A stretch of DNA of 64,000 bases from Rickettsiales bacterium (GCA_028281385.1 JANQJY010000098.1:11180-75179), one strand, 5' to 3'. Counted from the stretch's first letter, positions 2,947 through 43,302 are shown. Numbers and translations are program-made. Notes: generated from the letters alone by a model not told the origin.

Positions 2947-5900
2947 TTAAACGGTTGCGCTGGTGCCATATCCTCGCCCAACCCTGCCAGATAGCTGATA
3001 TACAGTGATATTTATACTCGATTGCGCTGCACCAAAATCATTCACCTGGTCCGCCGCACTATAGGTGGCACCAGAATTATTGGCTGCAATCGTGCGCATC
3101 ACATCACTGCCATCCAGGATATCGATTTCATACGCTTCCGACTCTTCCGAAAGCGGCACATCGGTCAAATCCCGCCACTGGCCACCGATCCGTGTCCGCC
3201 GTACCCATGAGATGCTCAGATTGTCCGATCCGTCGCGTTCACCCGTCACATGCACAGGGCTGTAAGGTTTGAGCGCTCTGGCCTGATAGGTAAAAGACTG
3301 TGCACTGACCGAGCCGAGTGTCTTGCCGACGCTGACACCTTTGTAAAGGCGTGACAGGCCGATTAGTCCGTCCGCCATCGCCTCTTTCTGCAGATGGTTG
3401 TCAAGCAGGGTAAAAGCTTCACCGGCGCTATGTCCGCCCGTGGCCCATTCGGTGCCCTGCCGCCCGCGCAACAAACCAGACAGGCGATATTTATTGGGAT
3501 TGAGTTCAACGGCGCTTTTAAACTGAATAACTTCATCGCCAACAAGTGCTGCATTCGCACCGTTCAGTACCGCCAGTTCGGTAGCGCTGGCAAGCGTGCC
3601 TTCGCCCATCAATACCACATCCAGCGTATTTTGATCATCAAACACGCTGGTCGGACCGTCCGCCAGCGCGGTGGTCACCGTACCGAGCGTCGCGGGCTGG
3701 ACAAAAGAGGCAAGCGACTCATAACTGCCACCCTCATCATCGGACCGGTAAATTACCGCTCCTTTCCAGCCATCCGTGGTCTCGCCGATCGCTGCCATGC
3801 GCAGCAGCGCTTCATCGGCACTGTCCGTGCTGAGTGCCGGCATATCGAGCAGGCGATACAGCGTGCTCGGCACCGGCGCTTTGGGCGTTCTTACCACCGT
3901 CGATTCGCCAGGCGGCGCATAAAAATCATAGGTACTGACATCTTCGGCCACCGCCTGTATGCGCAGCATTCCCGGTCGTCCAAACTGCACATGCGTAACG
4001 CGCATGACATGCGACGCATTATTGGCACTGACCGTGATCACATCTGCCGGTTCCAGACCGGCATACTGTGTCGGTATATGAAACTGATAGCGAAGGCGGG
4101 ACATCCAACTGTTATACAGCGCGACATCGGCAATAATTTTGGCCTTCTGATCGCTCATCACAATCGGCAGACTCAGACTCTGCACATCGACTGCACTGGC
4201 GGTCAGACGCTGTGCATGCTGCGTGCCGGTTTGATAATTTTTGAGGCGGTTGATATACAGAATCTCCACCCGCTGCGGCAATTCCAGCTCCTGCGTACGG
4301 GTGATCTCAATCGCTTCGCCTGTCTGTGCACTCGTCAGCGGAATCAGTTGATCCTCAGCAATATTGAGCACACTCGCATTGCCACGCGGAATGAATTTCA
4401 GCAATCCATCCGACTCGGCGGCATCGAAGAAATAGGCCGCCATCAACTGTTCAATCAATCGGCGTGCACTATTTTGGCTACTGACGACAAAGCCCTCAAC
4501 CTGATCGTCCAAGCGCGTCACATCGATAAAGGATTGCGGCAGTCCGGCACGTTCGCTGAGGTCCGCGACAATCGCCGCCAGCGATGACAGGCCGAATTTC
4601 CCCTGCACCCAATGGCCGGTTTTCCACACGCCGCCATCGGCCCAGACCGAGAGCATATCCGGCCAGTAGGGATAGGGTCGTGCATCCCAGGTCCACAGGA
4701 ACAAATGCTCGATCATATCCGAGCCATCCCACTCGGACAATGTCGCGGCAATGCCGGCACGTTGCGCGCGAAAATCGATTCTGCCTTTTGAATGATAGGG
4801 AAAGAAACTCTCTGACGAGGTCGGATCATAAAATACATTCGGCTGATTCGTCGCACCATCGACACTGGGAAAACCGAATTCGGTAAACCAGATTTTCTTG
4901 GATTGCGGTGTCCATGCCGTGCTGTTGGTATCGGGATTGACATGGCTGTTTTTCCAGAACCAGTCGAGATTTTTCCAGGCGTATTTCGCTTCGAGATTCA
5001 CCTTGGTGGTGCGCTCTGGATCGCTGTAATACCAGTCATAGCCCTCGCCGGAGGTCCAACCCTGTTTGATCGTCGGAATGTCATAGCCGAGTTCGTTCTG
5101 CGGCACATCGGTCAGTGGAAAATAGGCATCGATTCCGATAAAGTCGATATTGGAGGAAGCCCAAAGCGGATCGAGATTATACCACCCCTCATCGGTATGA
5201 TGATATTCCGACCAGTCCGCCGCATAGGTCACTTTCACGCCGGAGCCCATCGTCGTTTTCACCGTCGTCGCCAGAGACACCAGCGCATCCACCGCCGGAA
5301 AGTTCCGGTTGGTACTGGCACCGTCATTCACCTTGGTCAGCCCGATCAGTTCCGAGCCGATGGCAAAGGCGTCAACCTTGTCTTTGACCAGACTGGCATA
5401 ATGATTGATGAAGGCGTTATAGCCGTCGGTTTTGGTGAAGAAGTTTGCAACGTCGGTGGTCGATCCGGTGACCCGTCCACGCCAGGGCTTATCCGTGACA
5501 TCCATCAGAAACATCGGATAGAAAAAGATATTATAGCCGCGTGCCTTCAGCTCATCCAGATAACGCAGCAGCGACTGATCATCCGGCGTGCCGCCATAGC
5601 GCGGTAAACCACTGTCATAGGTAATCTGCCATGCCGTTGAACGGTCAAAACTGCCGACACTCCATACCTCCGGGCTGGTGGTGGCCTGGCTTGCGGTAAA
5701 TTCGACACCCGGTTTGATGGTGCACAATCCCGCATCCATATTATCGCCGAACCAGTTGACGACCACCCCGATCCATTCGACATTCGGACAGCTATCCTCC
5801 AGCTGATCGAGCGCGACCAGTGCATTGGCTGTCTCTTCCGGCGTATGGCGATTGATGATGCTTTTGTCGCCCGACTGTACGAAATTGCCGCCGACATCCT

Positions 5901-6630
5901 CACCTTCGATTTTCTCCTGAATCGTGGTGTCATAGACAAATTCGCCGGAGCCGGGAATCATGATCATATCCTTGACCATATTTTCTACCGACTGACCATC
6001 AACATCCGGCCACAGAATCTTACGCTTGACCTCGGCGGTGAAATTGGGAATGCGATTGCCATACGCGCCAAGCGGGAAATCTTCCACCACAATATAGGCC
6101 ATGCCGCGATAGGCCGGCGTACTCCCTACCCCTTCATAGGATTCGATCAGCGGATCGGGCAATTGATCTTCGCCGCCTTTATAAATACGGTAGGTGCCTT
6201 CGCTCAGATCGAGCAGGTCGGCATCGGCCCAGATGCGCAGCACTTCGTCAATCTCGCCTTCACAAACGGCAATCGCCAGGCTGATAAAATAGCTGAATTC
6301 CGTGCTCGAACTGCTCGGCCCGCCACCACCCTTTCCGCCTTGCGTGCTGGTAGTGGTCGTGGCGATCTCCTTGATCGGGCGCGACCAGATGATATTTCCC
6401 GCCAGCCGTGCCGACCCATAGACAATCGGAATCATTTCCCCATAGGTCGAGGTTTGTACCGCCAGATCCTTCAGGCGCGCACCTTCGCGATGCGTATCTT
6501 TGGGTCCACCGAAAATCGCATTATCAACGGCATTGCCAAGCGTGCTCGCCGCCAGTTGCAACCCGATGGCAGCCAATGGATTTGCCGCCGCTACCGATGA
6601 TGCCGCTGTGCTTAATAACATAGAAGCCAT
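2947..6630 (-). CDS. RcGTA g15-like baseplate/host-specificity multidomain protein (TIM-barrel-like glycoside-hydrolase region plus phage-tail region)
   Basis: 1227-aa ORF; Gly/Ala-rich N-terminus, ..IWSRPIKE.., ..NRIPNFTAEV.., and overall layout typical of GTA g15 homologues; last gene in the g12-g13-g14-g15 order. Confidence 0.88.
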   Translation of the reverse strand: MASMLLSTAASSVAAANPLAAIGLQLAASTLGNAVDNAIFGGPKDTHREGARLKDLAVQTSTYGEMIPIVYGSARLAGNIIWSRPIKEIATTTTSTQGGKGGGGPSSSSTEFSYFISLAIAVCEGEIDEVLRIWADADLLDLSEGTYRIYKGGEDQLPDPLIESYEGVGSTPAYRGMAYIVVEDFPLGAYGNRIPNFTAEVKRKILWPDVDGQSVENMVKDMIMIPGSGEFVYDTTIQEKIEGEDVGGNFVQSGDKSIINRHTPEETANALVALDQLEDSCPNVEWIGVVVNWFGDNMDAGLCTIKPGVEFTASQATTSPEVWSVGSFDRSTAWQITYDSGLPRYGGTPDDQSLLRYLDELKARGYNIFFYPMFLMDVTDKPWRGRVTGSTTDVANFFTKTDGYNAFINHYASLVKDKVDAFAIGSELIGLTKVNDGASTNRNFPAVDALVSLATTVKTTMGSGVKVTYAADWSEYHHTDEGWYNLDPLWASSNIDFIGIDAYFPLTDVPQNELGYDIPTIKQGWTSGEGYDWYYSDPERTTKVNLEAKYAWKNLDWFWKNSHVNPDTNSTAWTPQSKKIWFTEFGFPSVDGATNQPNVFYDPTSSESFFPYHSKGRIDFRAQRAGIAATLSEWDGSDMIEHLFLWTWDARPYPYWPDMLSVWADGGVWKTGHWVQGKFGLSSLAAIVADLSERAGLPQSFIDVTRLDDQVEGFVVSSQNSARRLIEQLMAAYFFDAAESDGLLKFIPRGNASVLNIAEDQLIPLTSAQTGEAIEITRTQELELPQRVEILYINRLKNYQTGTQHAQRLTASAVDVQSLSLPIVMSDQKAKIIADVALYNSWMSRLRYQFHIPTQYAGLEPADVITVSANNASHVMRVTHVQFGRPGMLRIQAVAEDVSTYDFYAPPGESTVVRTPKAPVPSTLYRLLDMPALSTDSADEALLRMAAIGETTDGWKGAVIYRSDDEGGSYESLASFVQPATLGTVTTALADGPTSVFDDQNTLDVVLMGEGTLASATELAVLNGANAALVGDEVIQFKSAVELNPNKYRLSGLLRGRQGTEWATGGHSAGEAFTLLDNHLQKEAMADGLIGLSRLYKGVSVGKTLGSVSAQSFTYQARALKPYSPVHVTGERDGSDNLSISWVRRTRIGGQWRDLTDVPLSEESEAYEIDILDGSDVMRTIAANNSGATYSAADQVNDFGAAQSSINITVYQLSGRVGRGYGTSATV

Positions 6631-6715
6631 AAAGAAATCCTTTTTTATTTGATCGGAGGAAGAGGTTGTGTGTATTTGTCGTCAGGATGAAACCCCATTA
6701 TCAAAGGAGCATACA

Positions 6716-7081
6716 ATGCTGGTCATACGCTTACTCTCTTTCTGCCTACTGATAGTGACTGCCGCCTGTGCAACACCATCAACGCAGTTCATGCCTTCCA
6801 GTGCAGCGTTGGCTCATTATGCCCCGACAGACCCGCAGCAGATTGACATCCTGCACAGTAATCCCAAGAAGCCGTTTATTGAGCTGGGAGGTATCCGCGC
6901 CGATGCCTATCTGGTCAATCCCGATGCGCAAATGCTGTATTACATGAAACGCGAAGCCGCCCGGCACGGAGCACATGCCATCATTCTGTATAAGAATGTG
7001 GAACAACATGATTTTGTTGAGTCCGCCATCAACATGACCCCACCCAAATATGCCTCAGCTATTGCGATACGGTATGAATAA
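6716..7081 (+). CDS. small lipoprotein
   Basis: AAGGAG RBS before ATG 6716; lipobox LIVTAAC; C-terminal half resembles the product of 7156..7524. Confidence 0.6.
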   Translation: MLVIRLLSFCLLIVTAACATPSTQFMPSSAALAHYAPTDPQQIDILHSNPKKPFIELGGIRADAYLVNPDAQMLYYMKREAARHGAHAIILYKNVEQHDFVESAINMTPPKYASAIAIRYE

Positions 7082-7155
7082 CGTCTAAAAATGCATTGAA
7101 TCATTGAGAAAAATCGTTAATAACATCTGTAATTAATCTGAACAGAGGACTGAGA

Positions 7156-7524
7156 ATGAAAACCTTTATTGCAACGCTTGCCGCTACGGCACTGCTTTCA
7201 ACCGCTACCATCGCCGCCGATGCGGAGTTCCATCCATCCACCTATACCACCTATAAGAAGCACGGTCCTTACAGCGGGTCTGTCAAAATTCTCGAGAAAC
7301 TGCCAGCTCCCGGCCAATACACCGAAATCGGCATTGTACGCGTGCCAACCAGCAAAGTTGCCAGCAGTTCGCAGGCTATTCGTCTACTGAAAGCAAAAGC
7401 TGCACAACATGGCGGCAATGCACTGAAGCTGGAAGATGATGCGGTGATCTTTGCCAATGGCGGCACGACGGATCGCGGCACCCGCCCGCAACATGCCACC
7501 GCCATTGCAGTGATTTCGAACTAA
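7156..7524 (+). CDS. small secreted protein, paralogue-like to 6716..7081
   Basis: Signal peptide MKTFIATLAATALLSTATIAADA; shared ..A..HG.NA..L.. C-terminal pattern. Confidence 0.6.
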   Translation: MKTFIATLAATALLSTATIAADAEFHPSTYTTYKKHGPYSGSVKILEKLPAPGQYTEIGIVRVPTSKVASSSQAIRLLKAKAAQHGGNALKLEDDAVIFANGGTTDRGTRPQHATAIAVISN

Positions 7525-7534
7525 ACAACGTGTC

Positions 7535-7557
7535 ATTACCCGCTTTATGCGGGTAAT
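7535..7557 (+). terminator. stem-loop after 7156..7524
   Basis: attacccgc-tttat-gcgggtaat perfect 9-bp stem; weak T tract. Confidence 0.4.
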
Positions 7558-7643
7558 TCCTTGAGTATTACAAATCTGCAGACTACCCGAACCATTCGGG
7601 CAGGAGGGTGTTTCTGCATTTTTTTCGCCGAATCACAATAACC

Positions 7644-7658
7644 TTAATATTTCGTTAA
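7644..7658. promoter_or_regulatory. TTAA-N7-TTAA (CtrA-type box candidate)
   Basis: ttaatatttcgttaa; about 95 nt upstream of 7753. Confidence 0.3.
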
Positions 7659-7752
7659 CTTTTCTATGTTATTCTATGAATAATAACACAATCCGATGTG
7701 ACGGATGCCATTATGTAACCCGCTATGAAACAGGAACAAAGGGTGTGGACTT

Positions 7753-8070
7753 ATGAGCAAGCAACCACTAACCATCATACTATCATTTCTCTGCCTTATG
7801 GCAGTCACCGCCTGTGGCAATAAGCAGCTACAGGTCGTTCCTCACACAGATCGTTTGGAACAGGACGGTGAACGTATTTACGGAACAATTGCATTGACCA
7901 ATGCTCAGACTGGCGAAACGGCAAACAAACTACATGTAAAAAAAATCGATAAAGGCTACGGGCTTCAAGGGCGCATGCACGAAAAAGATAATATAAAGGT
8001 TGATTTTGTCGCAGCCAAACACAAAGAATTCAAATATTTCTCCGGCCTGAAATTCAGCTGGTCGTTCTAG
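7753..8070 (+). CDS. small lipoprotein
   Basis: Lipobox LMAVTAC at the N-terminus; 105-aa ORF. Confidence 0.55.
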   Translation: MSKQPLTIILSFLCLMAVTACGNKQLQVVPHTDRLEQDGERIYGTIALTNAQTGETANKLHVKKIDKGYGLQGRMHEKDNIKVDFVAAKHKEFKYFSGLKFSWSF

Positions 8071-8075
8071 CTATT

Positions 8076-8531
8076 CTAAAAGCGGAATCCTGTAACAATC
8101 CGCCTTTGCCACATGTCATCCAACCGATGTTCTACCACTTTGCGTGCCGGCGCATAGGCATGGATCAGAGAAAGCGATGTAGGTTCGCCACCCGTAACAG
8201 GTAACGCGTAACTACTGACAATTCCTACATGCCTGGCATTGCCATCAATCCTCATCAGCGCGACATCACCTGGTTGCAATACATCCTTATCAATAAGGTG
8301 AAGTACCCGGCACAAGCCATTCCATAAACGTGCTTCGTCCGGAATATGACCATAATCGGTTTCATCGAAATCTGCCAATCGTTGCCCGGCTTTCTCAAGT
8401 TTTAACTCGCCGGCCACGCAGGCCAACAGACCCAGACAATCCACCCCATGCCGGCTGCGCCCCTGATGTCTGAACGGCACGCCGAGCCATCCGCGTGCAC
8501 AGGCAACAATCTGCTGGCAGCGCTCAGACAT
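8076..8531 (-). CDS. RcGTA g14-like NlpC/P60 cell-wall peptidase
   Basis: CARGWLGVPFRHQGRSRHGVDCLGL (catalytic Cys context), ..HVGIV.. and ..IHAY.. motifs; size and position as in GTA clusters. Confidence 0.85.
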   Translation of the reverse strand: MSERCQQIVACARGWLGVPFRHQGRSRHGVDCLGLLACVAGELKLEKAGQRLADFDETDYGHIPDEARLWNGLCRVLHLIDKDVLQPGDVALMRIDGNARHVGIVSSYALPVTGGEPTSLSLIHAYAPARKVVEHRLDDMWQRRIVTGFRF

Positions 8532-8586: not shown

Positions 8587-9051
8587 CTATGCCTGTTTTT
8601 TTTCTTTCTCAGGGCGATAAGACGCACGTAGCGACGGGCGTGCAAACAACGGGCGTTGGCCCAGGCTTTTCGCATACCACCATACCAGGGCGGACATAGT
8701 GACAATCGCCATACCGAAGACCCAGATAAAGGCGCCGATCGCCGCATCGCCATACAGCCCGATAATGGTAGCAGATGCAAAAATGGCAATGGCAATAATA
8801 AAGCCGAGAATCTGTCCCAGGATCGTACTGAACAAATGTACTTTCAATGACCGATTTTCCCACTGATGGCGTTGCTGTTGCTCTTTGGCAAACATATCCA
8901 GAATCTGCTGAGCGGACCCTTCAACGACATAATCATAGGCCTCCAGCATTTCCGGATCCGGCAATATTTCAATATTTTTACGCGGCGCATTGGGCTTGCG
9001 TTTATTATTTTGCTTGCGCGGAGAATGAGACGATTTGGGCGGCTGATTCAT
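8587..9051 (-). CDS. DUF2335-like membrane protein
   Basis: LPDPEMLEAYD..GSAQQILDMFAKEQQQRHQWE followed by two TM helices matches the DUF2335 pattern. Confidence 0.5.
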   Translation of the reverse strand: MNQPPKSSHSPRKQNNKRKPNAPRKNIEILPDPEMLEAYDYVVEGSAQQILDMFAKEQQQRHQWENRSLKVHLFSTILGQILGFIIAIAIFASATIIGLYGDAAIGAFIWVFGMAIVTMSALVWWYAKSLGQRPLFARPSLRASYRPEKEKKQA

Positions 9052-9409: not shown

Positions 9410-10258
9410 TTAACTGCTTCTGGTTGTTGAAGTTTCAAAGATCTTATCGGTTCCTGGCACATGTGGTTCGCCGCGAAAATTCACGGCATTGTTAAAGCGC
9501 GATATGCAGGTTTCGAATGTCTTGTCACACCCGGCTTCGGCACTATACCCATCCCCCACATTGACATCATACGGCATCGGCAAGACAGTGATAAACTGCC
9601 CGTTTGCGAATTCCTTGATTTCCATCGACAGTCCGGCATTGGCACCGCTGGTAAAGGTCATCAGACCAAAAGCGAAATAGCCATCCTCTTCCGTGCGTGT
9701 GCTATCGGTAAAGATGTTGCGATCGCTCACAGACGTCAATGTACCGATATGGGTAAATCCGGTCATATTCATCTTGCATCGGCTGCCGCCCAACCTGGCT
9801 CTGCAGCCCGGTGCGTACAGTTCCCCGATCGTCTGACTGAGCTGCTGCGTCAATCCGCGCACTTCGGCAACAAACTGCCCGTCCTTGACGGTCACTTCTC
9901 CCAGCCAACCCGTGCGCAGCATCATCCGTCCCTGCGTCAGATCAGCATAATTGACCATAAACACTTCGATTTCAGCAAAATCATATAGTCCGGCGAGCAG
10001 GTCTTCTTCCGTAATGGCTGCGGCATCGAGTAATCCTTCGATATCGAGATTATCGACATTCAATGCTGCCGAACCGACGATAGAGGTCGGCGTAAAACCG
10101 GTGGCAGCCTGATAGGTGACGCTATCAAACAGGATGTCACGGTCATGATCGGTGAATCCGAGTACGGTATTATCGCGCCGCGTCACTTTCCAGCAGGTTG
10201 CAAGCGTCGTTACTTCTTCTGCCAGATGGGCTTTCAATTCACTAGAAATGGATTTCAT
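9410..10258 (-). CDS. RcGTA g13-like hub protein (DUF2163 / BR0599 family)
   Basis: ..TTLATCWKVTRRDNTVLGFTDHDRDILFD..TYQAATGFT..VDNLDIEG..ITEEDLLAGLYD.AEIEVFMVNY is the characteristic N-terminal pattern. Confidence 0.9.
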   Translation of the reverse strand: MKSISSELKAHLAEEVTTLATCWKVTRRDNTVLGFTDHDRDILFDSVTYQAATGFTPTSIVGSAALNVDNLDIEGLLDAAAITEEDLLAGLYDFAEIEVFMVNYADLTQGRMMLRTGWLGEVTVKDGQFVAEVRGLTQQLSQTIGELYAPGCRARLGGSRCKMNMTGFTHIGTLTSVSDRNIFTDSTRTEEDGYFAFGLMTFTSGANAGLSMEIKEFANGQFITVLPMPYDVNVGDGYSAEAGCDKTFETCISRFNNAVNFRGEPHVPGTDKIFETSTTRSS

Positions 10259-10282
10259 AGATATTTTCCTTCGTCATGGAAT

Positions 10283-10888
10283 CTAAATTCTAATCTCTAT
10301 AATCGGGATATCACTCCAGCTTCTAACACCATAATTCTCCAACGTTGCCGAAAGTTGGTCGGTATCGAACCGCACCGGCACATCAAATTTAAAATCAGCG
10401 GTAATCACCGCACTATTCGCCGGCGGTGTAGTGAAACTCACCGCACCGGTAGTGGTATCTATTGTCACGCCGCTGGTTTGTTCAATATCATCAACATAGA
10501 TAGTGACACTTCCACTGACCGGTTTGGTAATGGTTCGCGATTCATTGCCGCTACCGCTGCTGTAATTTTTCACCAGTTGAAAATCGGTGGTGCTGCCATC
10601 GCCCGTGCCGATCGTTTCTCCGGCAGTTTCGAAATCCGTCCAGTCTTTGAAACGAAACCCGTGCGCCCGTCCTTTGCGTGCACGGAAAAACGCAATCAAT
10701 AGATCGAGCTGTGCTTGCATTTTGACTCCATGCGCAACATTATAACGCGCACGTGCCTGCATCCAGTTACTGTTACGTTGTTCATGCCCGCCCTGGGTAA
10801 CAACAATATCGGTCGAATAACCGGGTCCACCAGATGAGCCATAGCTGATATCCGTTGGGAACTGCACCTCGTGAAAGGCCATAATCAA
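10283..10888 (-). CDS. RcGTA g12-like distal tail protein (DUF2460 / TIGR02217 type)
   Basis: MAFHEVQFPTDISYGSSGGPGYSTDIVVTQGGHEQRNSNW..RARYNVAHG..LIAFFRARKGRAHGFRFKDWTDF is the signature of the family; start is 10888 or 10882. Confidence 0.9.
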   Translation of the reverse strand: MIMAFHEVQFPTDISYGSSGGPGYSTDIVVTQGGHEQRNSNWMQARARYNVAHGVKMQAQLDLLIAFFRARKGRAHGFRFKDWTDFETAGETIGTGDGSTTDFQLVKNYSSGSGNESRTITKPVSGSVTIYVDDIEQTSGVTIDTTTGAVSFTTPPANSAVITADFKFDVPVRFDTDQLSATLENYGVRSWSDIPIIEIRI

Positions 10889-14072: not shown

Positions 14073-14109
14073 ACACTTTTCCTATCTAAAAACTTTTCCA
14101 CTATTTCTC

Positions 14110-14153
14110 AGTATAATGGTAAATGGCGTGTGATTTTATGAAGCTTTTGTGAA
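14110..14153 (-). promoter_or_regulatory. box promoter b (ttcacaaaagcttcataa, 20-nt spacer, tatact)
   Basis: Box at 14136..14153, -10 at 14110..14115; upstream of 12222..14072, 10919..12250, g12 and g13. Confidence 0.55.
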
Positions 14154-14160
14154 GACTGGA

Positions 14161-14224
14161 GGGATTGGGCATTAGGGATTAGAAAATCTAATGCTCAATG
14201 CCTACTCCCTAATGCCTAGCTCTA
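14161..14224. repeat. heptad-type palindromic element (ggcattaggga / tccctaatgcc)
   Basis: 11-bp perfect inverted repeat at 14168..14178 and 14206..14216; supplies the stop of 14202..16466. Confidence 0.65.
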
Positions 14225-17373: not shown

Positions 17374-17386
17374 TGTTTTTGTGTTT

Positions 17387-17446: not shown

Positions 17447-17456
17447 TCATATGTTT

Positions 17457-17517: not shown

Positions 17518-17533
17518 GAATTGTAACAAAACC

Positions 17534-17578: not shown

Positions 17579-17609
17579 AATAAAAGTAGAAATAGTTAAA
17601 ACCGCGCTG

Positions 17610-29941: not shown

Positions 29942-30565
29942 CTATAAACCAATCACCAACTGCTCCAGTCGCTCCAGCGCATGACATAGTGCAGCTATTT
30001 CCCGCGCATCCATCATGTCATCCTGAACTCGTTTCAGGACCTTTTCATTCTCTCCCTTCACCACCGTCACCTGCGCAGCATGATTCGCCGGAAAGGTCAC
30101 CAGGCTTACTTCGACCAGCTCCAGTTTTGACAGTTTGCGCACGCCCGAATCCGGATCCATATGATACCGCGTCGGCGAGTAGCCGATGCTGAGTCCCTGC
30201 ACGACGCCCTTTTTAAGCAGCGCGTAGGCTTCCCGCGCACGGGCCACTTCAAGCATGAGTTTACCTTCGACATACAACCCGTTTTCATCTTCGAACATCA
30301 CGGTGAAATAGCCAATCGGCTGGGTCATGTCATGCTGCCACAGCAGCTTGATCTGATCGACCCGCCGGCGGATCGATTCACGGAATGCGCCACGCAGCAC
30401 GATATCACGTTGGTTATCGACGACGTCAAACACGCTCGCATAACCGGCAAAATAACCGTCCTCATCGAGCGATTTAACCTCGAAATCAGCCGATAGCTGT
30501 TTTTGCGGCAGCATGCTTGGCGTCACCTTTTTTTCATAGATAGGTTGAATCATTTTATCCCTCAA
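29942..30565 (-). CDS. HK97-family prohead protease (RcGTA g4-like)
   Basis: GYFAGYASVFDVVDNQRDIVLRGAF..LWQHD..PIG..EDENGLYVEGKL..GLSIGY pattern of the S78/U35 peptidases. Confidence 0.9.
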   Translation of the reverse strand: MRDKMIQPIYEKKVTPSMLPQKQLSADFEVKSLDEDGYFAGYASVFDVVDNQRDIVLRGAFRESIRRRVDQIKLLWQHDMTQPIGYFTVMFEDENGLYVEGKLMLEVARAREAYALLKKGVVQGLSIGYSPTRYHMDPDSGVRKLSKLELVEVSLVTFPANHAAQVTVVKGENEKVLKRVQDDMMDAREIAALCHALERLEQLVIGL

Positions 30566-33617: not shown

Positions 33618-33660
33618 ACAATATGACCGTTTGATGACCATTGTATGACAGCTTTATGAA
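33618..33660 (-). promoter_or_regulatory. box promoter g (ttcataaagctgtcatac, 19-nt spacer, tattgt)
   Basis: Box at 33643..33660 overlaps the portal stop codon region; upstream of 33143..33571. Confidence 0.5.
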
Positions 33661-35894: not shown

Positions 35895-35936
35895 CTAACA
35901 ACTATCAACTAAAGACTAAAAACTAACCACTAAACT
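35895..35936. repeat. six tandem heptads CTAAnnA between convergent genes
   Basis: ctaacaa ctatcaa ctaaaga ctaaaaa ctaacca ctaaact; supplies the stop of 35923..36519. Confidence 0.7.
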
Positions 35937-36519
35937 CCGGACTTCGGGTTTCAGACGCCAGCTCTTGCATGTCCGCCTCTTTCACATCCACCTGCGCCGT
36001 GGGCTTCTCAGCCATGCGCCCGGGCGAAACGTTACCCAGTTCCCACTCTTCGTCATAATGGTCCAGCACGCCTTGGCCACGTAGCTGGCGTTTAAGTTCA
36101 TCCTTCAATTCCTGATTTTTCTCCTGTAAATCCGTCACTTCCTGTTGAAGCCGCTTGACCTGCCGTTTGCCGTCTTTGACTTCCTGCGTCACGCGGCGTG
36201 CAGCCATGAAAAAGGCAGCCACTGCAGCCATGGCACCCAACACTTTGCCTTTCATACCGGTATGGCGCTGATGTTCCGCATGATACTTCTCCTTGCGGAA
36301 ATCGCCCAATTCACCGATCAAATGGCCGATATAATAAGCGGGGACGCCAAACAGCAACCCGCGTGCCAGCGCGCTCAGCGACTCCGACGACCCGCGATAA
36401 GGCTCTTTCGCCAGCAGGGTGGCATCTTTTCCCTTATCATGCAGAATGGCGTTCAGTTCATCCTGACGCGCCTGATCGCCGGCTGAAATAGGCTCATACT
36501 GTGTTTTCCGTGTTGCCAC
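35923..36519 (-). CDS. hypothetical TM/coiled-coil protein (198 aa)
   Basis: ORF with two hydrophobic stretches and a heptad-like Lys/Glu/Gln region; its stop lies in a heptad repeat. Confidence 0.5.
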   Translation of the reverse strand: MATRKTQYEPISAGDQARQDELNAILHDKGKDATLLAKEPYRGSSESLSALARGLLFGVPAYYIGHLIGELGDFRKEKYHAEHQRHTGMKGKVLGAMAAVAAFFMAARRVTQEVKDGKRQVKRLQQEVTDLQEKNQELKDELKRQLRGQGVLDHYDEEWELGNVSPGRMAEKPTAQVDVKEADMQELASETRSPEFSG

Positions 36520-36692: not shown

Positions 36693-39686
36693 GTGCCGAG
36701 TATCGTAATAAACCAGATGGTCGAGGAGGAAGTGCCTCAGGGCGGCACTATCTGTTTTGCCTATCCAAAGGATATGAATTACGGGCATTTCTGGGGATCC
36801 AGCCGCCATATTATTTCATTCGGAGCAATTGTCTGCCGTTCTCCGCGCGACTTCATGGTGTTGTTCCACCCCAATCAGATTGAAGTTCACTGGCATAAGC
36901 AAGAGCCAATTCCGGAAAACACCCTGCTCAATATCCAGCTGGAGGAAGTCGGCGGCAATATCCATGTCAATCCCGAACTTGGGTATCCCATTCACAATGT
37001 ATTGCGTTCCGAGATGTATCTGGTCGATCTGGGCAGCCCCAAGGCTGCCAGTCCGGTCTTTTATATCGAGCCACGCATTATTGGTGGGCCGGAAAAGCTG
37101 ATACCGCTACATTCGGGCGACGCCACATCTCGCAATGTCACGGTTTTGTGTGAAGGTGATGCCAGCAAATGTGAGTTCCGTATTTACGGAAAAGGCCCTT
37201 ACGACCGCCCGATGATGGAATATATCCCGGGCGTCCAATATGGGATGGCCGAAGGCCAAAAAGCCTTCAACTCAGTAGAAGCGATCATCACCACCGCGGC
37301 CTGCGGCGGCAGGATCAGCATTGGGACCGGCAATCGTCTGGGCTTTCCGGTCTTCATTCCCGGCAGCGGGTTTATTTTCCGTTACATGGTCGATGGCAAA
37401 GGTGTCATCGGAGCCGAACTGGTACCGGGATATATGAATAAACCTAATCCCTATTGCGGTGATCTGCGCGGGACGTTCAAACCACCGGAAGATATCGAAC
37501 TGAACGGCAAACGCAATTTGCAGGTGCTGGTGTCGCTGTTCAATATTGATCATATCGGCCATCAGGATGTGTATCAGGATCCGGAAGAAGCCTTTACAGA
37601 GTTGGCCGGCTCACTCGAGCAGGAACTAGAGCCGCCGGACTATGTCCGCATTCCGGATGAAGCAGATACGGTAGCCGGCGCTGCGCCTGCAATGCCTGCT
37701 GATGCGGTGCCTCCCACGGCACCCGTGCCACCCCCGCCGGTATCGCAAGAACACGCTGTATCACCAGAATCGCCAGCAATGCCGGATACTCCTGCACCGG
37801 CTCCGGTGCCGCCAGTACCGGCAGCGCCACCCGCCGAAACAGCGCCTCCTCTCCCTCTGATGGAGACACCGATGGCAAGCGATATCGACACGGCCAACTC
37901 CCCATCACCTCACACACAGAGTGCAATGAATTCTGCGCGCGATAACCTTGATGCGCTAAGCGGCAAAGCCAAAGAAAATCTGGATGCCATCGGTGACAAA
38001 GCAAAAGAAAAAATGAAGGGACTATTCTCCAAAATAGGCAAAGGGAAAAAGTCGGAAGATGATCTGCCACCGCCACCACCTGCGATGGCGGATCATGCCT
38101 TCTCTCCCTTTTCCATTCCGGAAAATCAGCCTCAGCCGGCTCCACCGGTGGCGGAACCGCCTGTACCACCAGCACCGCCACCACAAGAACAACCTGCGCC
38201 ACCACCTCTATCACCACCGAAAGACACATTGCAGACACAGATAGACCCGCATGCCCCCATTCCGCCATCGGCCATTCCGCCCGATTATGCGCCGGAAGCA
38301 ACGTCTCCACCGCCTCCGCCATCCTTTCCACCATCTGAGCCGGAACGTCCTGAACCACAGCCAACCTATTTCGTGCCGGAGCGGTCGGCTGAGGCCGGAG
38401 CGACGGCGGATAACCCCGTACCGGAGCGGTCGGATGTGCAGGAGTCGTTGGCTGAGGCCTCGATGGATGCGGATAACCAGGCCGGAGCTACTAACTCCGT
38501 GCCGGAGGCACAAACACCAGAGACACCGCCTGCGTCTGCTGAACCACCACCTGCCGAGCCGCCAGCCGCACCACCGTCGGTGCCGGAAACAGTGCCGCCG
38601 GAACCGATACAAGAAACGGTGCCGCTACCTCCTGTGTACGAGCAATCAAACGCGCAAGAGTCGTTGGCTAAGGCCACGACGGATGCCAATAATCCAGCAC
38701 CGGAGGAACCTGCTCCTCCAGCAACGGAACCTGTTTCACCACCGACGGAGCTGGCCCCACCTCCTGCCGCCCTTCCCGCGCCACCGGAACCGACGCCTGA
38801 ATTCAATCCGGAACCGCAGCCGGAAGAAATGGAGAATGAAGAAGAGGATGAAGAAGACACCGTTTTTGCCGAATCGCATGATGACAACGTATGGAATCAG
38901 CCGCCAGAGGCGCCCGTAACGGGCACGAATGCCCCGAAAGAACAGCTCAAAACACCTGCACCACCTTCCCCGCCAGTACCACCACCAGCAGTCGACAAGA
39001 TGGGTAATCTACCTATCACCGAATCGCATGATGATGATGTATGGAACCAGCCTGTGCCGGAGCGGTCGGCTGAGGCCGGAGCGACGGCGGATAGTTCTGT
39101 ACCGGAGCGGTCGGCTGAGGCCGGAGCAACGGCGAAAAATTCTGTGCCGGAGCGGTCGGCCGTGCAGGAGTCGTTGGCCGGGGCCACGACGAATGCGGAT
39201 CACCAGGCCGGAGCGACGGCGGATACTCAACCACCGACACCACCGGCACCGGCAGAGCAACCATCGCCGGTACCGCAGCCAGTAGAGCAGACACCACCTC
39301 CACCACCCGCGCCGGAGCCCGTGCCTGAACCGTCTTTTCCACCTCCGCCTCAGCCACCAGCACCGCAATCGGCCGCACCGCCTCCTACACAGGAGGCCGC
39401 ACCAATACCTGCACCACCTGTTGAACCACCACCAGCACCACAGCCCGTACAGGAAGCACCACCACCTCCTCCACCCGCGCCGGAGTCACAGACGAGTGAA
39501 CTACCGCCATCGACCCTGCCGCAAGGTATTATGGATACGGAAGACCAGCCGAATTATTTTGAATATATTGATGAACGCGCTGGGCAGGAGGCAGGAAATG
39601 CGGAGGAAACCAAACCAAAAGGGTTTAGCGCCGCGCCGCCCAACCGTCCGGCCTTCGGCTCCATCCCGCCTAAAGACGAGGAGTAA
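36693..39686 (+). CDS. 997-aa protein: about 300-aa globular N-domain plus about 700-aa proline-rich low-complexity tail containing several in-frame repeat elements
   Basis: GTG start with GGGAG RBS; long uninterrupted frame; PPPP/APxP runs; duplicated ESHDD(N/D)VWNQP motif. Confidence 0.7.
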   Translation: MPSIVINQMVEEEVPQGGTICFAYPKDMNYGHFWGSSRHIISFGAIVCRSPRDFMVLFHPNQIEVHWHKQEPIPENTLLNIQLEEVGGNIHVNPELGYPIHNVLRSEMYLVDLGSPKAASPVFYIEPRIIGGPEKLIPLHSGDATSRNVTVLCEGDASKCEFRIYGKGPYDRPMMEYIPGVQYGMAEGQKAFNSVEAIITTAACGGRISIGTGNRLGFPVFIPGSGFIFRYMVDGKGVIGAELVPGYMNKPNPYCGDLRGTFKPPEDIELNGKRNLQVLVSLFNIDHIGHQDVYQDPEEAFTELAGSLEQELEPPDYVRIPDEADTVAGAAPAMPADAVPPTAPVPPPPVSQEHAVSPESPAMPDTPAPAPVPPVPAAPPAETAPPLPLMETPMASDIDTANSPSPHTQSAMNSARDNLDALSGKAKENLDAIGDKAKEKMKGLFSKIGKGKKSEDDLPPPPPAMADHAFSPFSIPENQPQPAPPVAEPPVPPAPPPQEQPAPPPLSPPKDTLQTQIDPHAPIPPSAIPPDYAPEATSPPPPPSFPPSEPERPEPQPTYFVPERSAEAGATADNPVPERSDVQESLAEASMDADNQAGATNSVPEAQTPETPPASAEPPPAEPPAAPPSVPETVPPEPIQETVPLPPVYEQSNAQESLAKATTDANNPAPEEPAPPATEPVSPPTELAPPPAALPAPPEPTPEFNPEPQPEEMENEEEDEEDTVFAESHDDNVWNQPPEAPVTGTNAPKEQLKTPAPPSPPVPPPAVDKMGNLPITESHDDDVWNQPVPERSAEAGATADSSVPERSAEAGATAKNSVPERSAVQESLAGATTNADHQAGATADTQPPTPPAPAEQPSPVPQPVEQTPPPPPAPEPVPEPSFPPPPQPPAPQSAAPPPTQEAAPIPAPPVEPPPAPQPVQEAPPPPPPAPESQTSELPPSTLPQGIMDTEDQPNYFEYIDERAGQEAGNAEETKPKGFSAAPPNRPAFGSIPPKDEE
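38372..38492 (+). repeat. family-A units (short plus hairpin variant) in frame in 36693..39686
   Basis: Translated VPERSAEAGATADNPVPERSDVQESLAEASMDADNQAGA. Confidence 0.85.
38639..38705 (+). repeat. degenerate family-A hairpin-variant unit in frame
   Basis: ..caagagtcgttggctaaggccacgacggatgccaat.. translated QESLAKATTDANN. Confidence 0.6.
39053..39232 (+). repeat. three family-A units in frame in 36693..39686
   Basis: Translated VPERSAEAGATADSSVPERSAEAGATAKNSVPERSAVQESLAGATTNADHQAGATA. Confidence 0.85.
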
Positions 39687-39689: not shown

Positions 39690-40958
39690 TTACCTGTTAA
39701 AAAAAGAGCCTTGATTTCTCATGATTTGTTCAATGCCTTGTATTCTGCTGCGATATGCCTCCATACAGTCATTGGCCACACGATCTGCGGCACCCATATC
39801 GCCATGCTTATGCAATTCGTTCAGATCCAACGTCAGATTCACATTAATTTCAGAGAGATGTAACATGCCCTGCTTGTCCTGCAACCAGTCTACACCGGCA
39901 ATTCCAACCCCTGTAAGATCGTAAAAATGTTTCGCCATACGCTCCACACGCGCTTTATTTTCCGGCGTTAAATCGTTATCGAGATCGACAGGCGCGATAC
40001 TGCCGCCCTGCGCATAATTCGCCAGCCATGATCCCTCTTTTGGATAACGCAAATAGGCCCCAACGCATTTTCCATGCGAGATCACAACACGCATGTCACC
40101 CTTGTTCGGTTCCAGCCATTTCATGGCCAGCATCGACCGGTCAGGAAAAGAAAAGTCATCAAACGGTTCAATCTTTGACGACTGCTCATGCGAAGATTTC
40201 TCATCATATTCAATAAGAAACGCTCCGTTTTCCTTTTCTTTGAAGATGCGGTAAACCGCCTTGCCGGCAATACTTCTTGGATCCTTAAGCACGACTTGGT
40301 CGAATCCGTGCTGCTGCATAAACTGTTTCACGTCCTCGACAGATTCTACCCTGGCACTCGTTGTACACAATCTTTCTCCACCAGAACGTTGTGCCATTTT
40401 TTTGTCAATCTCAGGAAGGTTGGCTTTGTTTTTGGCACGCAAAGCTCTGGAAGGCGGGCTGACAAAATAAAGTTCCGGATGTCTTCTTGCGATATACCGG
40501 TCAATCATTGACAGATTAGTACCTGAAACGCACATATCCACCTGATCGGTAGATAATGTCTCTGGCGGACACGATTTCATGTGCTCTTTAAGCTTTACTC
40601 CAAGTGCTTCACCATCACGTGACGGGCCATGCTCTCTTTTCAGCATATCTGTCAGATCATACGCATCGAATAAAAAAGAAACGCCTTGTACATTATACCC
40701 ATACCCATGATTCCGGGCAGCATCATAGTCTTTCTCATCCTCTAGCAACATTTCATAATTCTTTGATGCCGATTCAGGTTGAAAAGAAGCAAAATACAAA
40801 CGCTCACAATCCGGATGATTGGCCAGGGCTTCCAACAACAGCGGTTCATGGACCCGGTCCATGCACCCTGTCACCATAATCGTGGCTTTCTTCGGTGCCT
40901 CTTCAGGCGTCTGCCGTACCCGTGCCTGCCACGAGGTATCTCCTGGTTCATTCAGCAT
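39690..40958 (-). CDS. ATP-grasp-fold enzyme (RimK / glutathione-synthetase-like C-terminal half)
   Basis: ..VVLKDPRSIAGKAVYRI.. / ..MRVVISHGKCVGAYLRYPKEGSWLANYAQGGSI.. / ..GIAGVDWL.D..G.LHLSEINV.. match the ATP-grasp core pattern. Confidence 0.6.
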   Translation of the reverse strand: MLNEPGDTSWQARVRQTPEEAPKKATIMVTGCMDRVHEPLLLEALANHPDCERLYFASFQPESASKNYEMLLEDEKDYDAARNHGYGYNVQGVSFLFDAYDLTDMLKREHGPSRDGEALGVKLKEHMKSCPPETLSTDQVDMCVSGTNLSMIDRYIARRHPELYFVSPPSRALRAKNKANLPEIDKKMAQRSGGERLCTTSARVESVEDVKQFMQQHGFDQVVLKDPRSIAGKAVYRIFKEKENGAFLIEYDEKSSHEQSSKIEPFDDFSFPDRSMLAMKWLEPNKGDMRVVISHGKCVGAYLRYPKEGSWLANYAQGGSIAPVDLDNDLTPENKARVERMAKHFYDLTGVGIAGVDWLQDKQGMLHLSEINVNLTLDLNELHKHGDMGAADRVANDCMEAYRSRIQGIEQIMRNQGSFFNR

Positions 40959-41023: not shown

Positions 41024-41569
41024 CTACAGCCGCCGTATTTGAAGCCCGTCATACTCGCGTTCGCGCGCCCAGTTCAGATATTGTGACAATGCATCGACCT
41101 GATCGTCATGCGCACCGTTTGGAAAAGCGAGGATTTCCTGTTCAAATTCTGCCAACCAGCCGGCAAATGTCGGCAGTGCCACCTGTCCGGCTTCGATCAT
41201 CGGGGTCACAGCGGCAAAACGGGTCACCTTATCGCCACGCGGCATCACCGGAATAATCGGCAATGTCGTCTCACGTCTTACATCCTGAATGAGCGACTGA
41301 CCCGATGCCTTATCTTCGATCAGAATGCCTTCCGGGCGAAATTGTTCGGCCAGTGCAATCACCTGGCGTTTTAATTCCGGATATTCCACCCGCCCGCGCC
41401 AGACGTGAATGATCTGATGCACCCTCCCCCGGCGCTGTGAGTTTTTCCCCTCCTCAGAGAGAAGAGAAGAGAGAGAGGCTGAATTCCGGATTCTAACCAC
41501 CACACACGCACTGTAATCCCGTCCCGCGCCAGCCTTAATTGCAGTATCCCAGCTTTGAATGATGGTCAT
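41024..41569 (-). CDS. large terminase, C-terminal nuclease half (split RcGTA g2-like gene)
   Basis: IIQSWDTAIKAGAGRDYSACVV..IEDKASGQSLIQD..DK..R...V.P.IEAGQV.LP..A.WL..FE.E...FPNGAHDDQVDALSQYLNW. Confidence 0.85.
   Translation of the reverse strand: MTIIQSWDTAIKAGAGRDYSACVVVRIRNSASLSSLLSEEGKNSQRRGRVHQIIHVWRGRVEYPELKRQVIALAEQFRPEGILIEDKASGQSLIQDVRRETTLPIIPVMPRGDKVTRFAAVTPMIEAGQVALPTFAGWLAEFEQEILAFPNGAHDDQVDALSQYLNWAREREYDGLQIRRL
41441..41497. repeat. purine-rich heptad-element arm inside the terminase C-half, in frame
   Basis: ..gagagaagagaagagagagaggctgaa.. resembles 27045..27066 (gtgagaagagagaagaggctag); read as ..NSASLSSLLSEEGKNS.. Confidence 0.45.
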
Positions 41570-41654: not shown

Positions 41655-42374
41655 GTGGCTGACGAAATCCCTGTGCCAAGACGCAGACCTCAAAAAGATA
41701 GAGACGGACTGAACGAGCTCTTTAAAAATCTGCCTACACCAGAAGAGCTTGCAACACTAAGAAAAATAGGAGAATGGCAAGGCATTATGCGGGAAGCCGG
41801 GCAATCAGGCTGGGAAAGTGTCATGCCTATCTACAAGGACAATTTAAAAGCATTTCGCAAGATGGTGAATGATCCGGAAACATTAAGAAATAACGCATTA
41901 ATCGACCGCTTTGGGACAGATGAGAAAGCCAAAGAAGTGTTGGGCAACACGCTGAAAAAATTTGAAAGTGCAATGGCACTTGGCGAAGCGTTTTCAAAAG
42001 CCAAAAAAGAAGCACTCAACGCCAACGATATTAAATCATTCAAAGGGGCCTTTAATCAGATGTATTCGACCAGGGACGCATTTACAGAAGCAATCGGAGA
42101 AGTGAATAGCGACCTGGACACTCTCCCTAGCTCGCTACATAAACTTTTACCTCATTCTCCCGGCGATATTAATGATAGAGGTATAACACGAGATTATGGA
42201 CACCAAAAGACTATCGAAAAAGAACTGAAAACGCTATTGGACAAGGAAATAATTGAAGAACACATACGTACCGCACCTGCACAAAAAGCGGATATTGGAG
42301 AACCGGATCACGGCCTGCCGGACTCTGCGCGAAATGTCGCGGACAAGGGAAAAGGCAGCCCTCAGATAGGCTAA
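41655..42374 (+). CDS. hypothetical protein (239 aa) lying between the two terminase halves
   Basis: GTG start preceded by GGAGGA; opposite strand to the terminase. Confidence 0.5.
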   Translation: MADEIPVPRRRPQKDRDGLNELFKNLPTPEELATLRKIGEWQGIMREAGQSGWESVMPIYKDNLKAFRKMVNDPETLRNNALIDRFGTDEKAKEVLGNTLKKFESAMALGEAFSKAKKEALNANDIKSFKGAFNQMYSTRDAFTEAIGEVNSDLDTLPSSLHKLLPHSPGDINDRGITRDYGHQKTIEKELKTLLDKEIIEEHIRTAPAQKADIGEPDHGLPDSARNVADKGKGSPQIG

Positions 42375-42408: not shown

Positions 42409-43302
42409 TCAAAACCGCCCAAACCATTCCAACTTGATCATCCCGCCTTCCTGCGGCAGGGGCTGCTGCTGGTATTGCGCGGCGAAGGCGGCGCTGCCAA
42501 GATCGCATTTGGCGCGTTCGATCAATGCCGCGTCTTCGCGCGCGGGATGCAGCAACTCTCCGGCGTGGCGCCGATACGTGCCCCACGCTTCCTCTTCGCT
42601 CGCAATCGCCGGAAGTTTGAGCCATTCCCATCCGCCTTTTTTGAGCAGATGGCCGGCGACATCCTCCTCATGCAACCGCTGCATCACCACCACCATCACC
42701 CCGCGTTTTTTGTCATCCAGCCGTGTTGAGAAAGTATGGTCGAACCAGTCATTAACAAACCGGCGCGTGATCACGCTGGAGGCATGGAGCGGGTTCATCA
42801 CGTCATCGGCAATCAGCACATTGCCGCCCTCGCCCGTCGCCGTGCCGAAGATGGATGTCGCCATGCGCATGCCGCGCGTCGTGGTCACGAATTTATGTTT
42901 TTCATTCTGATCACGGCTCAGCTGCGTGTCGGGGAACAGCGTGCGATACCAGTGTGACTGCATGACCAGCCGGCAATCCATCGAATGTTTATTGGCCAGT
43001 GACTGTGCATAGCTTGCCGCCATGATCCGTTGCCCCGGGTCCTGGCCCAACAGCCAGGCCGGCCATGCGACGGACACAATAAGCGACTTCAGCGAGCGCG
43101 GTGGCAGATTGATCACCAGCCGTGTCATTTCTCCCCGCTCGCATGCTGAGAGATATTCTGCAATCAGTTCAATATGCCAGTTCGGCAGGTAGGTCTGTCC
43201 CGGGCAGGCGGTCGCAAAGACCTTCTCGATAAATGCTTTGAAATCGATACGCAGGTAGGCTTCATGAATAGGAGGCATAATAATATTCCAAACATTGAGC
43301 AA
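42409..43302 (-). CDS. large terminase, N-terminal ATPase half (split RcGTA g2-like gene)
   Basis: ..LVINLPPRSLKSLIVSVAWPAWLLGQDP..RIM.ASY...LA.KHS...R.. (PPRxxKS Walker-A-like) ..IADDVMNP..AAQYQQQPLPQEGGMIKLEWF then stop. Confidence 0.85.
   Translation of the reverse strand: MLNVWNIIMPPIHEAYLRIDFKAFIEKVFATACPGQTYLPNWHIELIAEYLSACERGEMTRLVINLPPRSLKSLIVSVAWPAWLLGQDPGQRIMAASYAQSLANKHSMDCRLVMQSHWYRTLFPDTQLSRDQNEKHKFVTTTRGMRMATSIFGTATGEGGNVLIADDVMNPLHASSVITRRFVNDWFDHTFSTRLDDKKRGVMVVVMQRLHEEDVAGHLLKKGGWEWLKLPAIASEEEAWGTYRRHAGELLHPAREDAALIERAKCDLGSAAFAAQYQQQPLPQEGGMIKLEWFGRF

Follow-up and report, generated by a model that had tools for sequence, protein, structure and literature searches.

The locus described here is a head-tail gene set of the type known from RcGTA, the gene transfer agent (GTA) of Rhodobacter capsulatus (genes g1-g15), and lies on a 64,000-nt stretch of DNA from a Rickettsiales bacterium (GCA_028281385.1, JANQJY010000098.1:11180-75179), which in its full length is referred to as the window. 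The set is collinear with that of RcGTA, consists of intact open reading frames (ORFs) and is strongly fragmented, the genes from the terminase to g15 being spread over 40.4 kb with approximately 25-28 non-GTA ORFs in between. RcGTA-type clusters have been regarded as compact operons that occur in five alphaproteobacterial orders only. The favoured reading, held at a probability of about 0.7, is that the window carries a vertically inherited RcGTA-type GTA (viriform) head-tail set, formerly a single operon, which is in the course of being dissolved. In the Rickettsiales, only small scattered GTA clusters have been reported (PMC5721377).

The identities of the ORFs were judged using Pfam, NCBIfam and PHROGs, complemented by phmmer searches against PDB, which includes the solved RcGTA structure; together with extensions of about 8 kb obtained from overlapping contigs, 72 kb in all were searched. 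All the structural ORFs named in the initial annotation of this DNA were supported by these searches, and they follow the canonical RcGTA order, all on the minus strand: g2 (in two parts), g3, g4, g5, g6, g7, g8, g12, g13, g14 and g15.

42409..43302, minus strand, N-terminal half (ATPase) of the large terminase subunit (TerL), stand-alone ORF terN (PHROG 38 TerL 1.8e-62)
41024..41569, minus strand, C-terminal half (RNaseH-like nuclease) of TerL, stand-alone ORF terC (Terminase_6C 2e-17; TIGR01630)
33654..34955, minus strand, portal, g3 (Phage_portal 1.3e-82; TIGR01537; RcGTA portal chain 1e-101)
29942..30565, minus strand, prohead protease, g4 (Peptidase_S78 4e-34; TIGR01543)
27177..28376, minus strand, major capsid protein, g5 (TIGR01554 5e-117; RcGTA capsid 2.7e-79)
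22657..23998, minus strand, g6-g7-g8, overlapping ORFs for head-tail adaptor, head closure and tail completion (TIGR02215; TIGR01563/Phage_HCP; Tail_completion_gp17)
9410..10888, minus strand, g12 (distal tail) and g13 (baseplate hub), adjacent (TIGR02217 4e-72; TIGR02218 5e-77; RcGTA chains 5e-52 and 4e-51)
8076..8531, minus strand, g14, NlpC/P60 cell-wall peptidase (NLPC_P60 4e-6; TIGR02219 1.7e-14)
2947..6630, minus strand, g15, megatron baseplate protein, full length, 1227 aa (NF048004 GTA_megatron; RcGTA chain 2e-164)

RcGTA chains are the top solved-structure matches of g15, portal, capsid, g12 and g13 (phmmer, PDB). The g15 product scores 1199.6 bits with NF048004 GTA_megatron (cut-off 800) and also matches GTA_TIM, Phage-tail_3 and Rcc01698_C. 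The g14 product reaches 54 bits with TIGR02219, under the cut-off of 82 bits, and is 42-51% identical to g14 of two related loci (L009 and L010); terN (42409-43302) has no match in Pfam. The twelve GTA ORFs are full length and carry their catalytic motifs. The dispersal over approximately 40 kb in canonical order on one strand, as initially described, was thus borne out, and the g6-g7-g8 and g12-g13 blocks are indeed the only ones seen closed in the window; at least eight junctions hold ORFs of the opposite strand. The description of the structural genes as intact applies to the ORFs named and not to the set as a whole, which is incomplete, g9-g11 being missing.

A trivial source of the 40-kb spacing would be the mis-joining of metagenomic contigs, and the window does come from a metagenome-type assembly with a dispersed repeat able to mislead assemblers. 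However, the window is matched at 100% identity over 10.7, 11.8 and 5.6 kb by three Logan contigs from independent assemblies, which cross the portal-pentapeptide-protease-RTX-capsid-HigBA-c116-c223 junctions and the g15-to-g12 junctions. The layout therefore does not stem from the assembly; the interleaved framework also occurs in relatives from other samples, and a chimera is considered highly improbable. No single-nucleotide polymorphisms within the species were found, Logan contig L001 being 100% identical to the window.

Relatives were obtained by a capsid-based scan of GTDB species representatives, which gave 11 loci (L002-L012) with capsid identities of 64-80% and two distant ones, and exact-protein look-ups added a 50-kb Logan contig to the comparison set. 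A scan of IMG/VR with g12 was of no help for synteny, as it yielded only tail modules that were more distant and lacked head genes. The relatives share a collinear framework that reads [c116 paralogue]-terN-terC-c198-portal-protease-capsid-c116-c223-g6-g7-g8 and, after g8, (g9)-[opposite-strand lectin trio]-u754/u616/u443-g12-g13-g14-g15, with the following gaps:

terN/terC, 10 to 1888 bp
terC/portal, 474 to 6071 bp
portal/protease, -73 to 3491 bp
protease/capsid, 34 to 5530 bp
capsid/c116, 134 to 2052 bp
g8/g12, 2560 to 11771 bp
g14/g15, 28 to 1448 bp

The same junctions are occupied in different lineages by different genes, mostly on the opposite strand, with gap lengths varying 10- to 100-fold. 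The g7/g8 and g12/g13 junctions are always closed, and g6/g7 is opened in L006 and L009 only. At one end of the range, the compact L010 locus takes about 17 kb between TerL and g15; at the other stands the window, with the greatest overall expansion, though L005 is more expanded around the capsid gene. The suggestion that the locus serves as an insertion platform for effector-like genes holds as far as the recurrence of the junctions as insertion sites is concerned; an enrichment of effector genes at them is not demonstrated, because secreted RTX-type genes also fill the flanks.

In neighbour-joining trees of the capsid and of capsid, protease and g6 together, the window groups with L002, L003, L004, L005 and L012. 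L004 belongs to UBA6178, a freshwater member, according to the literature, of Candidatus Mitibacteraceae, which is described as the deepest-branching, apparently free-living Rickettsiales family, and L005 to UBA3002, the namesake of an 'ancient stage' free-living Rickettsiales family; neither of the two taxonomy papers mentions GTAs. The host is probably an uncultured alphaproteobacterium, and its nearest GTA relatives are metagenome-assembled genomes (MAGs) of early-branching, apparently free-living Rickettsiales (Mitibacteraceae/UBA3002).

The intervening genes are of different ages. The initial estimate of about 30 unrelated genes is close to the 25-28 ORFs counted, of which about ten (c116, c223, c198, u754/u616/u443, the lectin trio and the pentapeptide gene) occupy the same positions in related genomes and are therefore old, syntenic residents and not recent insertions; they are given here together with the c116 paralogue upstream of TerL:

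45844..46116, plus strand, c116 paralogue upstream of TerL (26% identity to the c116 family)
35923..36519, minus strand, c198, conserved between TerL and portal (homologues in the same position in L003, L004, L012 and L018; no known family)
30773..33052, plus strand, pentapeptide-repeat protein at the portal/protease junction (Pentapeptide_4 2.7e-27)
25486..25836, minus strand, c116, orphan of 116 aa just after the capsid gene (57-78% identity and same position in at least 10 relatives)
24456..25127, minus strand, c223, conserved before g6 (family F10; same position in L003, L004, L005, L007, L011, L012 and L018)
20673..22616, plus strand, trio of c164, c270 (two transmembrane helices) and a SUEL-lectin-like membrane protein, conserved after g8/g9
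10919..16466, minus strand, u754, u616 and u443, helical same-strand proteins in the g9-g11 space, with hydrophobic segments rich in glycine (positional homologues in relatives)

The c116 gene always follows the capsid gene directly and is conserved to the same degree; its family comprises 661 homologues, all annotated as 'hypothetical' and belonging to no Pfam family, and an AlphaFold2 model (predicted local distance difference test score, pLDDT, 74) gave nothing below E=0.05 in Foldseek searches of PDB and BFVD. The opposite-strand c116 paralogue upstream of TerL is also present in L006, L010 and L018, and pentapeptide genes lie at or beside the portal/protease junction in L003, L005, L007 and L012. 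The lectin trio follows g8/g9 in most relatives (L003-L006, L008, L010-L012, L022); the SUEL_Lectin match of 4.5e-6 in the window is below the Pfam cut-off, and the L021/L022 homologue is listed without a mark of weakness.

The remaining inserts include the RTX, ATP-grasp, HigB/antitoxin, proline-rich and small secreted or lipoprotein genes pointed out earlier, all of which, like the pentapeptide gene, proved to be real:

41655..42374, plus strand, 239-aa orphan ORF in the terN/terC gap (GC 0.449; no Pfam/PHROG family; no homologue in relatives)
39690..40958, minus strand, ATP-grasp enzyme, lineage-specific insert (GSH-S_ATP, RimK and YheCD ATP-grasp matches; absent from relatives)
36693..39686, plus strand, 997-aa proline-rich protein, insert (20.8% proline; no family match; 45-nt repeat copies at 38369-38497 and 39050-39223)
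28574..29938, plus strand, RTX calcium-binding repeat protein at the protease/capsid junction (HemolysinCabind 4e-28)
26279..27010, minus strand, HigB toxin (26663-27010) and helix-turn-helix (HTH) antitoxin (26279-26596) (HigB-like_toxin 4e-15; HTH_3 4e-11; GC 0.40-0.41; absent from relatives)
16708..20533, plus strand, three lineage-specific orphan genes of 221, 405 and 547 aa (no family match; no detectable homologue in relatives)
8587..9051, minus strand, DUF2335 membrane protein between g13 and g14 (DUF2335 4e-12)
6668..8070, plus strand, three small secreted/lipoprotein genes between g14 and g15 (signal peptides in 3/3; lipobox in the 7753-8070 product; no family match)

Eleven of the 16 lineage-specific inserts in the window are on the opposite strand. 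At the protease/capsid junction an RTX homologue is found in L005 and a different conserved opposite-strand gene (family F5) in nine relatives; the place of the 221-, 405- and 547-aa orphans is taken by unrelated large opposite-strand genes in L004, L012 and L022. The g13/g14 gap measures 881 bp in the window as against -5 to 194 bp in L010 and L009. Between g14 and g15, L009 carries a different opposite-strand gene of 450 aa. A phmmer search of PDB with 12 window proteins of no assigned family, concatenated, gave no match.

The persistence of the pentapeptide gene, the lectin-like trio and family F5 beside GTA genes across the clade could be taken to mean that head and baseplate are kept for another task, such as the delivery or display of the interleaved secreted, lectin-like, RTX and pentapeptide proteins, with the interleaving reflecting functional coupling; repurposing for host interaction in Rickettsiales was proposed by George et al. 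However, RTX and other secreted proteins are as common in the flanks, the contents of the junctions vary among the relatives and placement on the opposite strand argues against co-transcription, which together make such a particle improbable.

As regards the dissolution of a former operon, moron-like genes would have built up at a restricted number of permissive junctions. Most of these genes lie on the opposite strand, and in composition they match the host background; some are old and clade-wide and others (HigBA, the ATP-grasp enzyme, the proline-rich giant and the small lipoproteins) specific to the window genome, the tightly coupled g6-g7-g8 and g12-g13 blocks staying closed. The build-up would be explained by an element that has ceased to be packaged or limited in size and by a tolerance of breaks where neighbouring genes are translated independently. 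The former operon would now form about nine or ten transcription units, which would need to be co-regulated in trans as a regulon. Five loci are co-regulated in trans in RcGTA. The tube and the tape measure may be encoded elsewhere, replaced or lost.

The separation of the terminase into two ORFs was initially singled out as the exception among uninterrupted genes; the comparison with homologues speaks against damage. The terN and terC products align to residues 34-319 and 330-479, respectively, of the fused 490-aa TerL of L006, so that the cut falls in the ATPase/nuclease linker and no part is lost. The terN end, ...GGM[IV]KLxWFxR[FY] and stop, is in the identical position in the window and L004, and terC starts at most 6 residues from QSWDTAIK in the window, L004, L005, L010, L011 and L018. 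The N-terminal halves keep INxPPRxLKS, GEGGxxLIxDD and VMQRLH, and the C-terminal halves QSWDTAIK, LIEDKASGQS and HDDQVDA. The spacing of the two ORFs ranges from overlap in L010 through 349 (L004), 619 (L011) and 842 (window) to 1888 bp (L018). In a collection of 5.8 billion proteins, the best 120 terC homologue clusters include 108 with lengths of 161-191 aa and the Terminase_6C domain only; they lie on contigs of up to 2.35 Mb, and none of the 120 reaches 400 aa. Since stand-alone nuclease halves are the norm across the homologue clusters, the two-gene TerL is the conserved normal state of the clade and not a lesion; if TerL works, it would do so in the form of two polypeptides separated at the ATPase/nuclease linker. 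Rfam searches found no intron or RNA element in the TerL gap, and no description of a two-gene TerL was found in the literature searched. The clade-wide arrangement offers a natural experiment as to whether a packaging motor requires a covalent link between its ATPase and nuclease domains. In the UBA3002 MAG (L005, 12519-13016), a stand-alone nuclease half (MAHGITHSWDTA...) is relocated between capsid and c116, more than 12 kb from the usual place.

The part of the set that is missing is the tail tube and its associated genes. No g9, g10, g10.1 or g11 was found in the window and its 8-kb extensions with Pfam, PHROGs, NCBIfam, PDB or a clade-specific hidden Markov model (HMM) of g9, built from the Phage_tail_2 genes of relatives (about 138 aa, directly after g8); g1 and g3.5 were likewise undetected in the window. 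The g9 gene lies directly after g8 in L003, L004, L005, L007, L009, L011 and L021/L022, with a weak signal in L010; the window, L012, L006 and L008 lack it. In the window, a convergent gene has its stop 40 bp from that of g8, an arrangement shared with L012, whose capsid identity of 80% is as high as that of any relative; the short contig of L002 ends before g8. The window and L012 may either have the tube encoded elsewhere or belong to a lineage heading towards the tube-less pattern of derived Rickettsiales, with head and baseplate. The space of g9-g11 is occupied by u754, u616 and u443, with positional homologues in L003, L004, L006, L008, L010, L011 and L022 and no match in Pfam, PHROGs, NCBIfam or PDB. 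These were considered as tape-measure or tube substitutes and set aside, no profile evidence supporting them as such; a tape-measure-like role is one that we can only infer. In the basal, compact L009 (5738-6352), a 204-aa M23 peptidase comes after g9, in the place that u754/u616/u443 take in other genomes.

The base composition distinguishes the GTA genes, and not the inserts, from their surroundings. GC content is 0.536 in the GTA genes (0.586 at third codon positions, GC3), 0.476-0.503 in the inserts and 0.492 in the flanks; GTA genes exceed inserts (Mann-Whitney U test, p=0.001) and flanks (p=0.005), and inserts are no different from flanks (p=0.69). The A+T-richness first ascribed to the inserts is thus that of the local background, with the GTA genes as GC-enriched outliers, and GC enrichment is a described trait of GTA genes (PMC7360931). 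Only HigBA (GC 0.40-0.41) and a 142-aa ORF after the portal gene (0.38) look recently imported.

Ratios of nonsynonymous to synonymous substitution (dN/dS; Nei-Gojobori method, NG86) between the window and its relatives are 0.08-0.4 for all the GTA genes and the conserved accessory genes, with dS saturated (0.9-3.7 or undefined), because of which these ratios inform on long-term constraint only. The root-to-tip distance of the window (1.18-1.19) is within the range of the relatives (1.08-1.38), those with compact clusters included, and being no longer than theirs gives no sign of a lineage-specific relaxation of constraint. Long-term purifying selection and the lack of a rate acceleration would argue against neutral decay.

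Decay in a slower mode, by which an unused GTA or an ancient prophage is gradually dismantled and the ORFs are intact only because of the slowness, deserves to be weighed against these data. It would account for the missing tube, chaperone and tape-measure genes, for a TerL in two pieces with an unrelated ORF between, for the destroyed operon structure and for a g14 below its NCBIfam cut-off, and in Rickettsiales George et al. described gene loss as well as a relaxation of selection on tail genes. However, the twelve ORFs, among them the 1227-aa g15, are full length with catalytic motifs; the GTA genes are kept at 50-80% identity across the clade with saturated synonymous sites and without rate acceleration in the window; the TerL split is common to more than 100 sequence clusters with both halves conserved; and the GC enrichment of the GTA genes is maintained. 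A remnant of this kind is therefore regarded as unlikely. The head, connector and baseplate genes look functional, and a functional particle is not to be told from slow decay by sequence alone. No signs of a cryptic HK97-like prophage (integrase, att repeats or tRNA target, lysis and replication genes) were found by the virion module, and no integrase or repressor was matched among about 60 ORFs scanned; a DUF1376 protein 11 kb upstream is the sole additional protein with a phage association.

Several observations weigh against a vertically inherited GTA set in dissolution. Completeness of an RcGTA-type cluster has been defined as the presence of all 14 of g2-g15, with g1, g3.5 and g7 not counted (Kogay et al. 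2024), and g9-g11 are undetected in the window; its 40.4 kb also contrasts with the roughly 14-17 kb of one compact, presumably co-transcribed locus. Co-transcription is precluded by the opposite-strand genes present at nearly all the junctions, and no GTA-specific shared promoter was found. The saturated dS, above 1.4, leaves room for a recent relaxation of selection in the window lineage, a second, compact cluster may possibly lie outside the 72 kb covered, and the taxonomic position of the window is inferred only from the similarity of its GTA proteins to those of named MAGs.

The gene families and their order in the window are those of RcGTA (PDB 6TBA and related entries), which shares with it the GC enrichment relative to the host (trend: PMC7360931). 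In contrast to RcGTA, which spans about 15 kb, the window locus takes 40 kb and alone has some 25-28 ORFs of foreign or accessory nature, the majority of them on the opposite strand; its TerL is encoded by two genes, g9, g10, g10.1, g11, g1 and g3.5 are undetected, and the clade-specific genes c116, c223, c198 and u754/u616/u443 are additional. The retained subset is the same as in the derived Rickettsiales sets of Rickettsia, Wolbachia, Orientia and Sneabacter (PMC9254644, PMC10732058, PMC5721377): the capsid/portal complex, distal tail, hub and megatron are kept, and the tube and other tail parts are missing. Multi-locus GTA sets under purifying selection with interspersed host genes were described by George et al. 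and in the Orientia mobilome paper, and host genes lie between GTA genes in the window as well; the notion that RcGTA-like clusters are always compact does not hold in view of the multi-locus sets with intervening host genes published for Rickettsiales (PMC9254644, PMC10732058). Unlike those derived sets, which are spread over several distant loci with no more than 5-6 genes per cluster, the window has 12 collinear genes in one stretch, retains g6-g8 and g14 and belongs to a lineage near the free-living early-branching Rickettsiales. The inserts resemble phage morons in lying exactly between genes that are adjacent in relatives, in their differing composition, in their frequent placement on the opposite strand and in the recurrence of junctions; they differ in that the host element is a domesticated non-mobile GTA and not a prophage, in that many have been kept for long and in that flanking promoters and terminators are not demonstrable in scans of the window.

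The kind of system is already known, interspersion having been published for derived Rickettsiales, and to this the locus and its relatives add the compact-to-dispersed series and the two-gene terminase. Near the base of the Rickettsiales, the series leads from a compact locus of about 17 kb to the 40-kb collinear, host-interleaved one, providing a concrete route from an operon to a scattered regulon and suggesting that the element is older than thought; the window shows an intermediate stage of operon dissolution towards the scattered remnants of Rickettsia-like symbionts. It is a tentative and rather less probable proposition that the GTA still works in these free-living early-branching Rickettsiales, as a regulon with a two-polypeptide terminase motor and with the tube supplied in trans or dispensed with. 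If true, a near-complete RcGTA-type element would predate the split of the Rickettsiales from the 'Clade 1' orders, and the window would show the actual path by which the GTA remnants of endosymbionts became scattered.

As to regulation, counts of sigma-70 promoter-like and intrinsic-terminator-like sites between 23.6 and 43.6 kb are no higher than in shuffled sequences, with terminator-like sites modestly raised between 3.6 and 23.6 kb, and the promoters that the inserts were initially said to have of their own thus find no support in the sigma-70 consensus scan. The 15-nt motif TGACAGTTYYRTGAA has 13 copies in the window as against 0.69 expected, nearly all of them intergenic and 30-190 nt upstream of gene starts (positions 2356, 16548, 16611, 17534, 26025, 33646, 35458, 40997, 43333, 46764, 46820, 47771 and 62012). 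It is found upstream of terN, c116 and u754 and within the region upstream of the portal gene, with two partial copies before the protease gene, and is also enriched in the relatives (1.4-2.3 per 10 kb). As a GTA-specific operator it was rejected, since it also precedes unrelated genes and, in the relatives, opposite-strand inserts; it probably represents a promoter-proximal element of the whole clade, a promoter or an operator, and though no GTA-specific signal is compatible with a separate promoter for each GTA fragment. It is also contained in two longer duplicated divergent-promoter regions (16611-16671 with 62012-62072; 28485-28527 with 50564-50606).

The dispersed repeat family of about 45 nt has the core GAGCGGTCGGCTGAGGCCGGAGCGA, with 8 long-core copies as against 0 expected and 21 short-core copies as against 2.2, all on the plus strand:

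11062; 16428-16486; 17381-17662; 22623; 30637-30676; 34751-34877; 35104-35256, plus strand, repeat sites, first half
38369-38497; 38630-38686; 39050-39223; 43782-43944; 52663-52808; 55929-56125, plus strand, repeat sites, second half

The copies lie at intergenic junctions of the GTA locus and in coding regions read in both orientations, such as the N-terminal extension of the portal (minus strand; two copies, 34751-34877) and the proline-rich ORF (plus strand), because of which the repeat looks like a DNA-level element (of the kind of REP or RPE elements) and not a protein domain. It is absent from all the relatives. An exact 25-mer of it in the JGI metagenomes occurs in one unrelated 3.7-kb contig of 64% GC (L015 948-972, JACLAD010013915.1), where it codes for ...PERSAEAGAKG at an ORF end.

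No Rfam elements or tRNAs were found in the window. Its flanks (43451-64000 and 1-2900) contain no housekeeping gene and are rich in orphan and secreted-type proteins, which in addition to YceI and DUF1376 proteins include:

48452-49651, SASA esterase-RTX protein
59280-60656, Tad/VWA-like protein
60673-61914, Hint-domain protein
62093-63892, M10 serralysin-like RTX protease

Exact-protein look-ups of the 62093-63892 and 60673-61914 products and of P0001 found them not on record. The housekeeping genes for FolC and RNase R come only about 3-5 kb past the right edge of the window. About 0.7-1.35 kb past the left edge (L016 1527-2201), the minus strand encodes a 224-aa DUF2793 and Phage_phiTE_241_C protein, followed by a Laminin_G_3-like protein; the DUF2793 gene is downstream of g15 on the same strand, with four genes between. 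A gene of the rcc00171 type, for a tail fibre, follows g15 in some large clusters (Shakya et al.), and the DUF2793 gene, just outside the window and likewise downstream of g15 as in RcGTA, is likely to be of this type.

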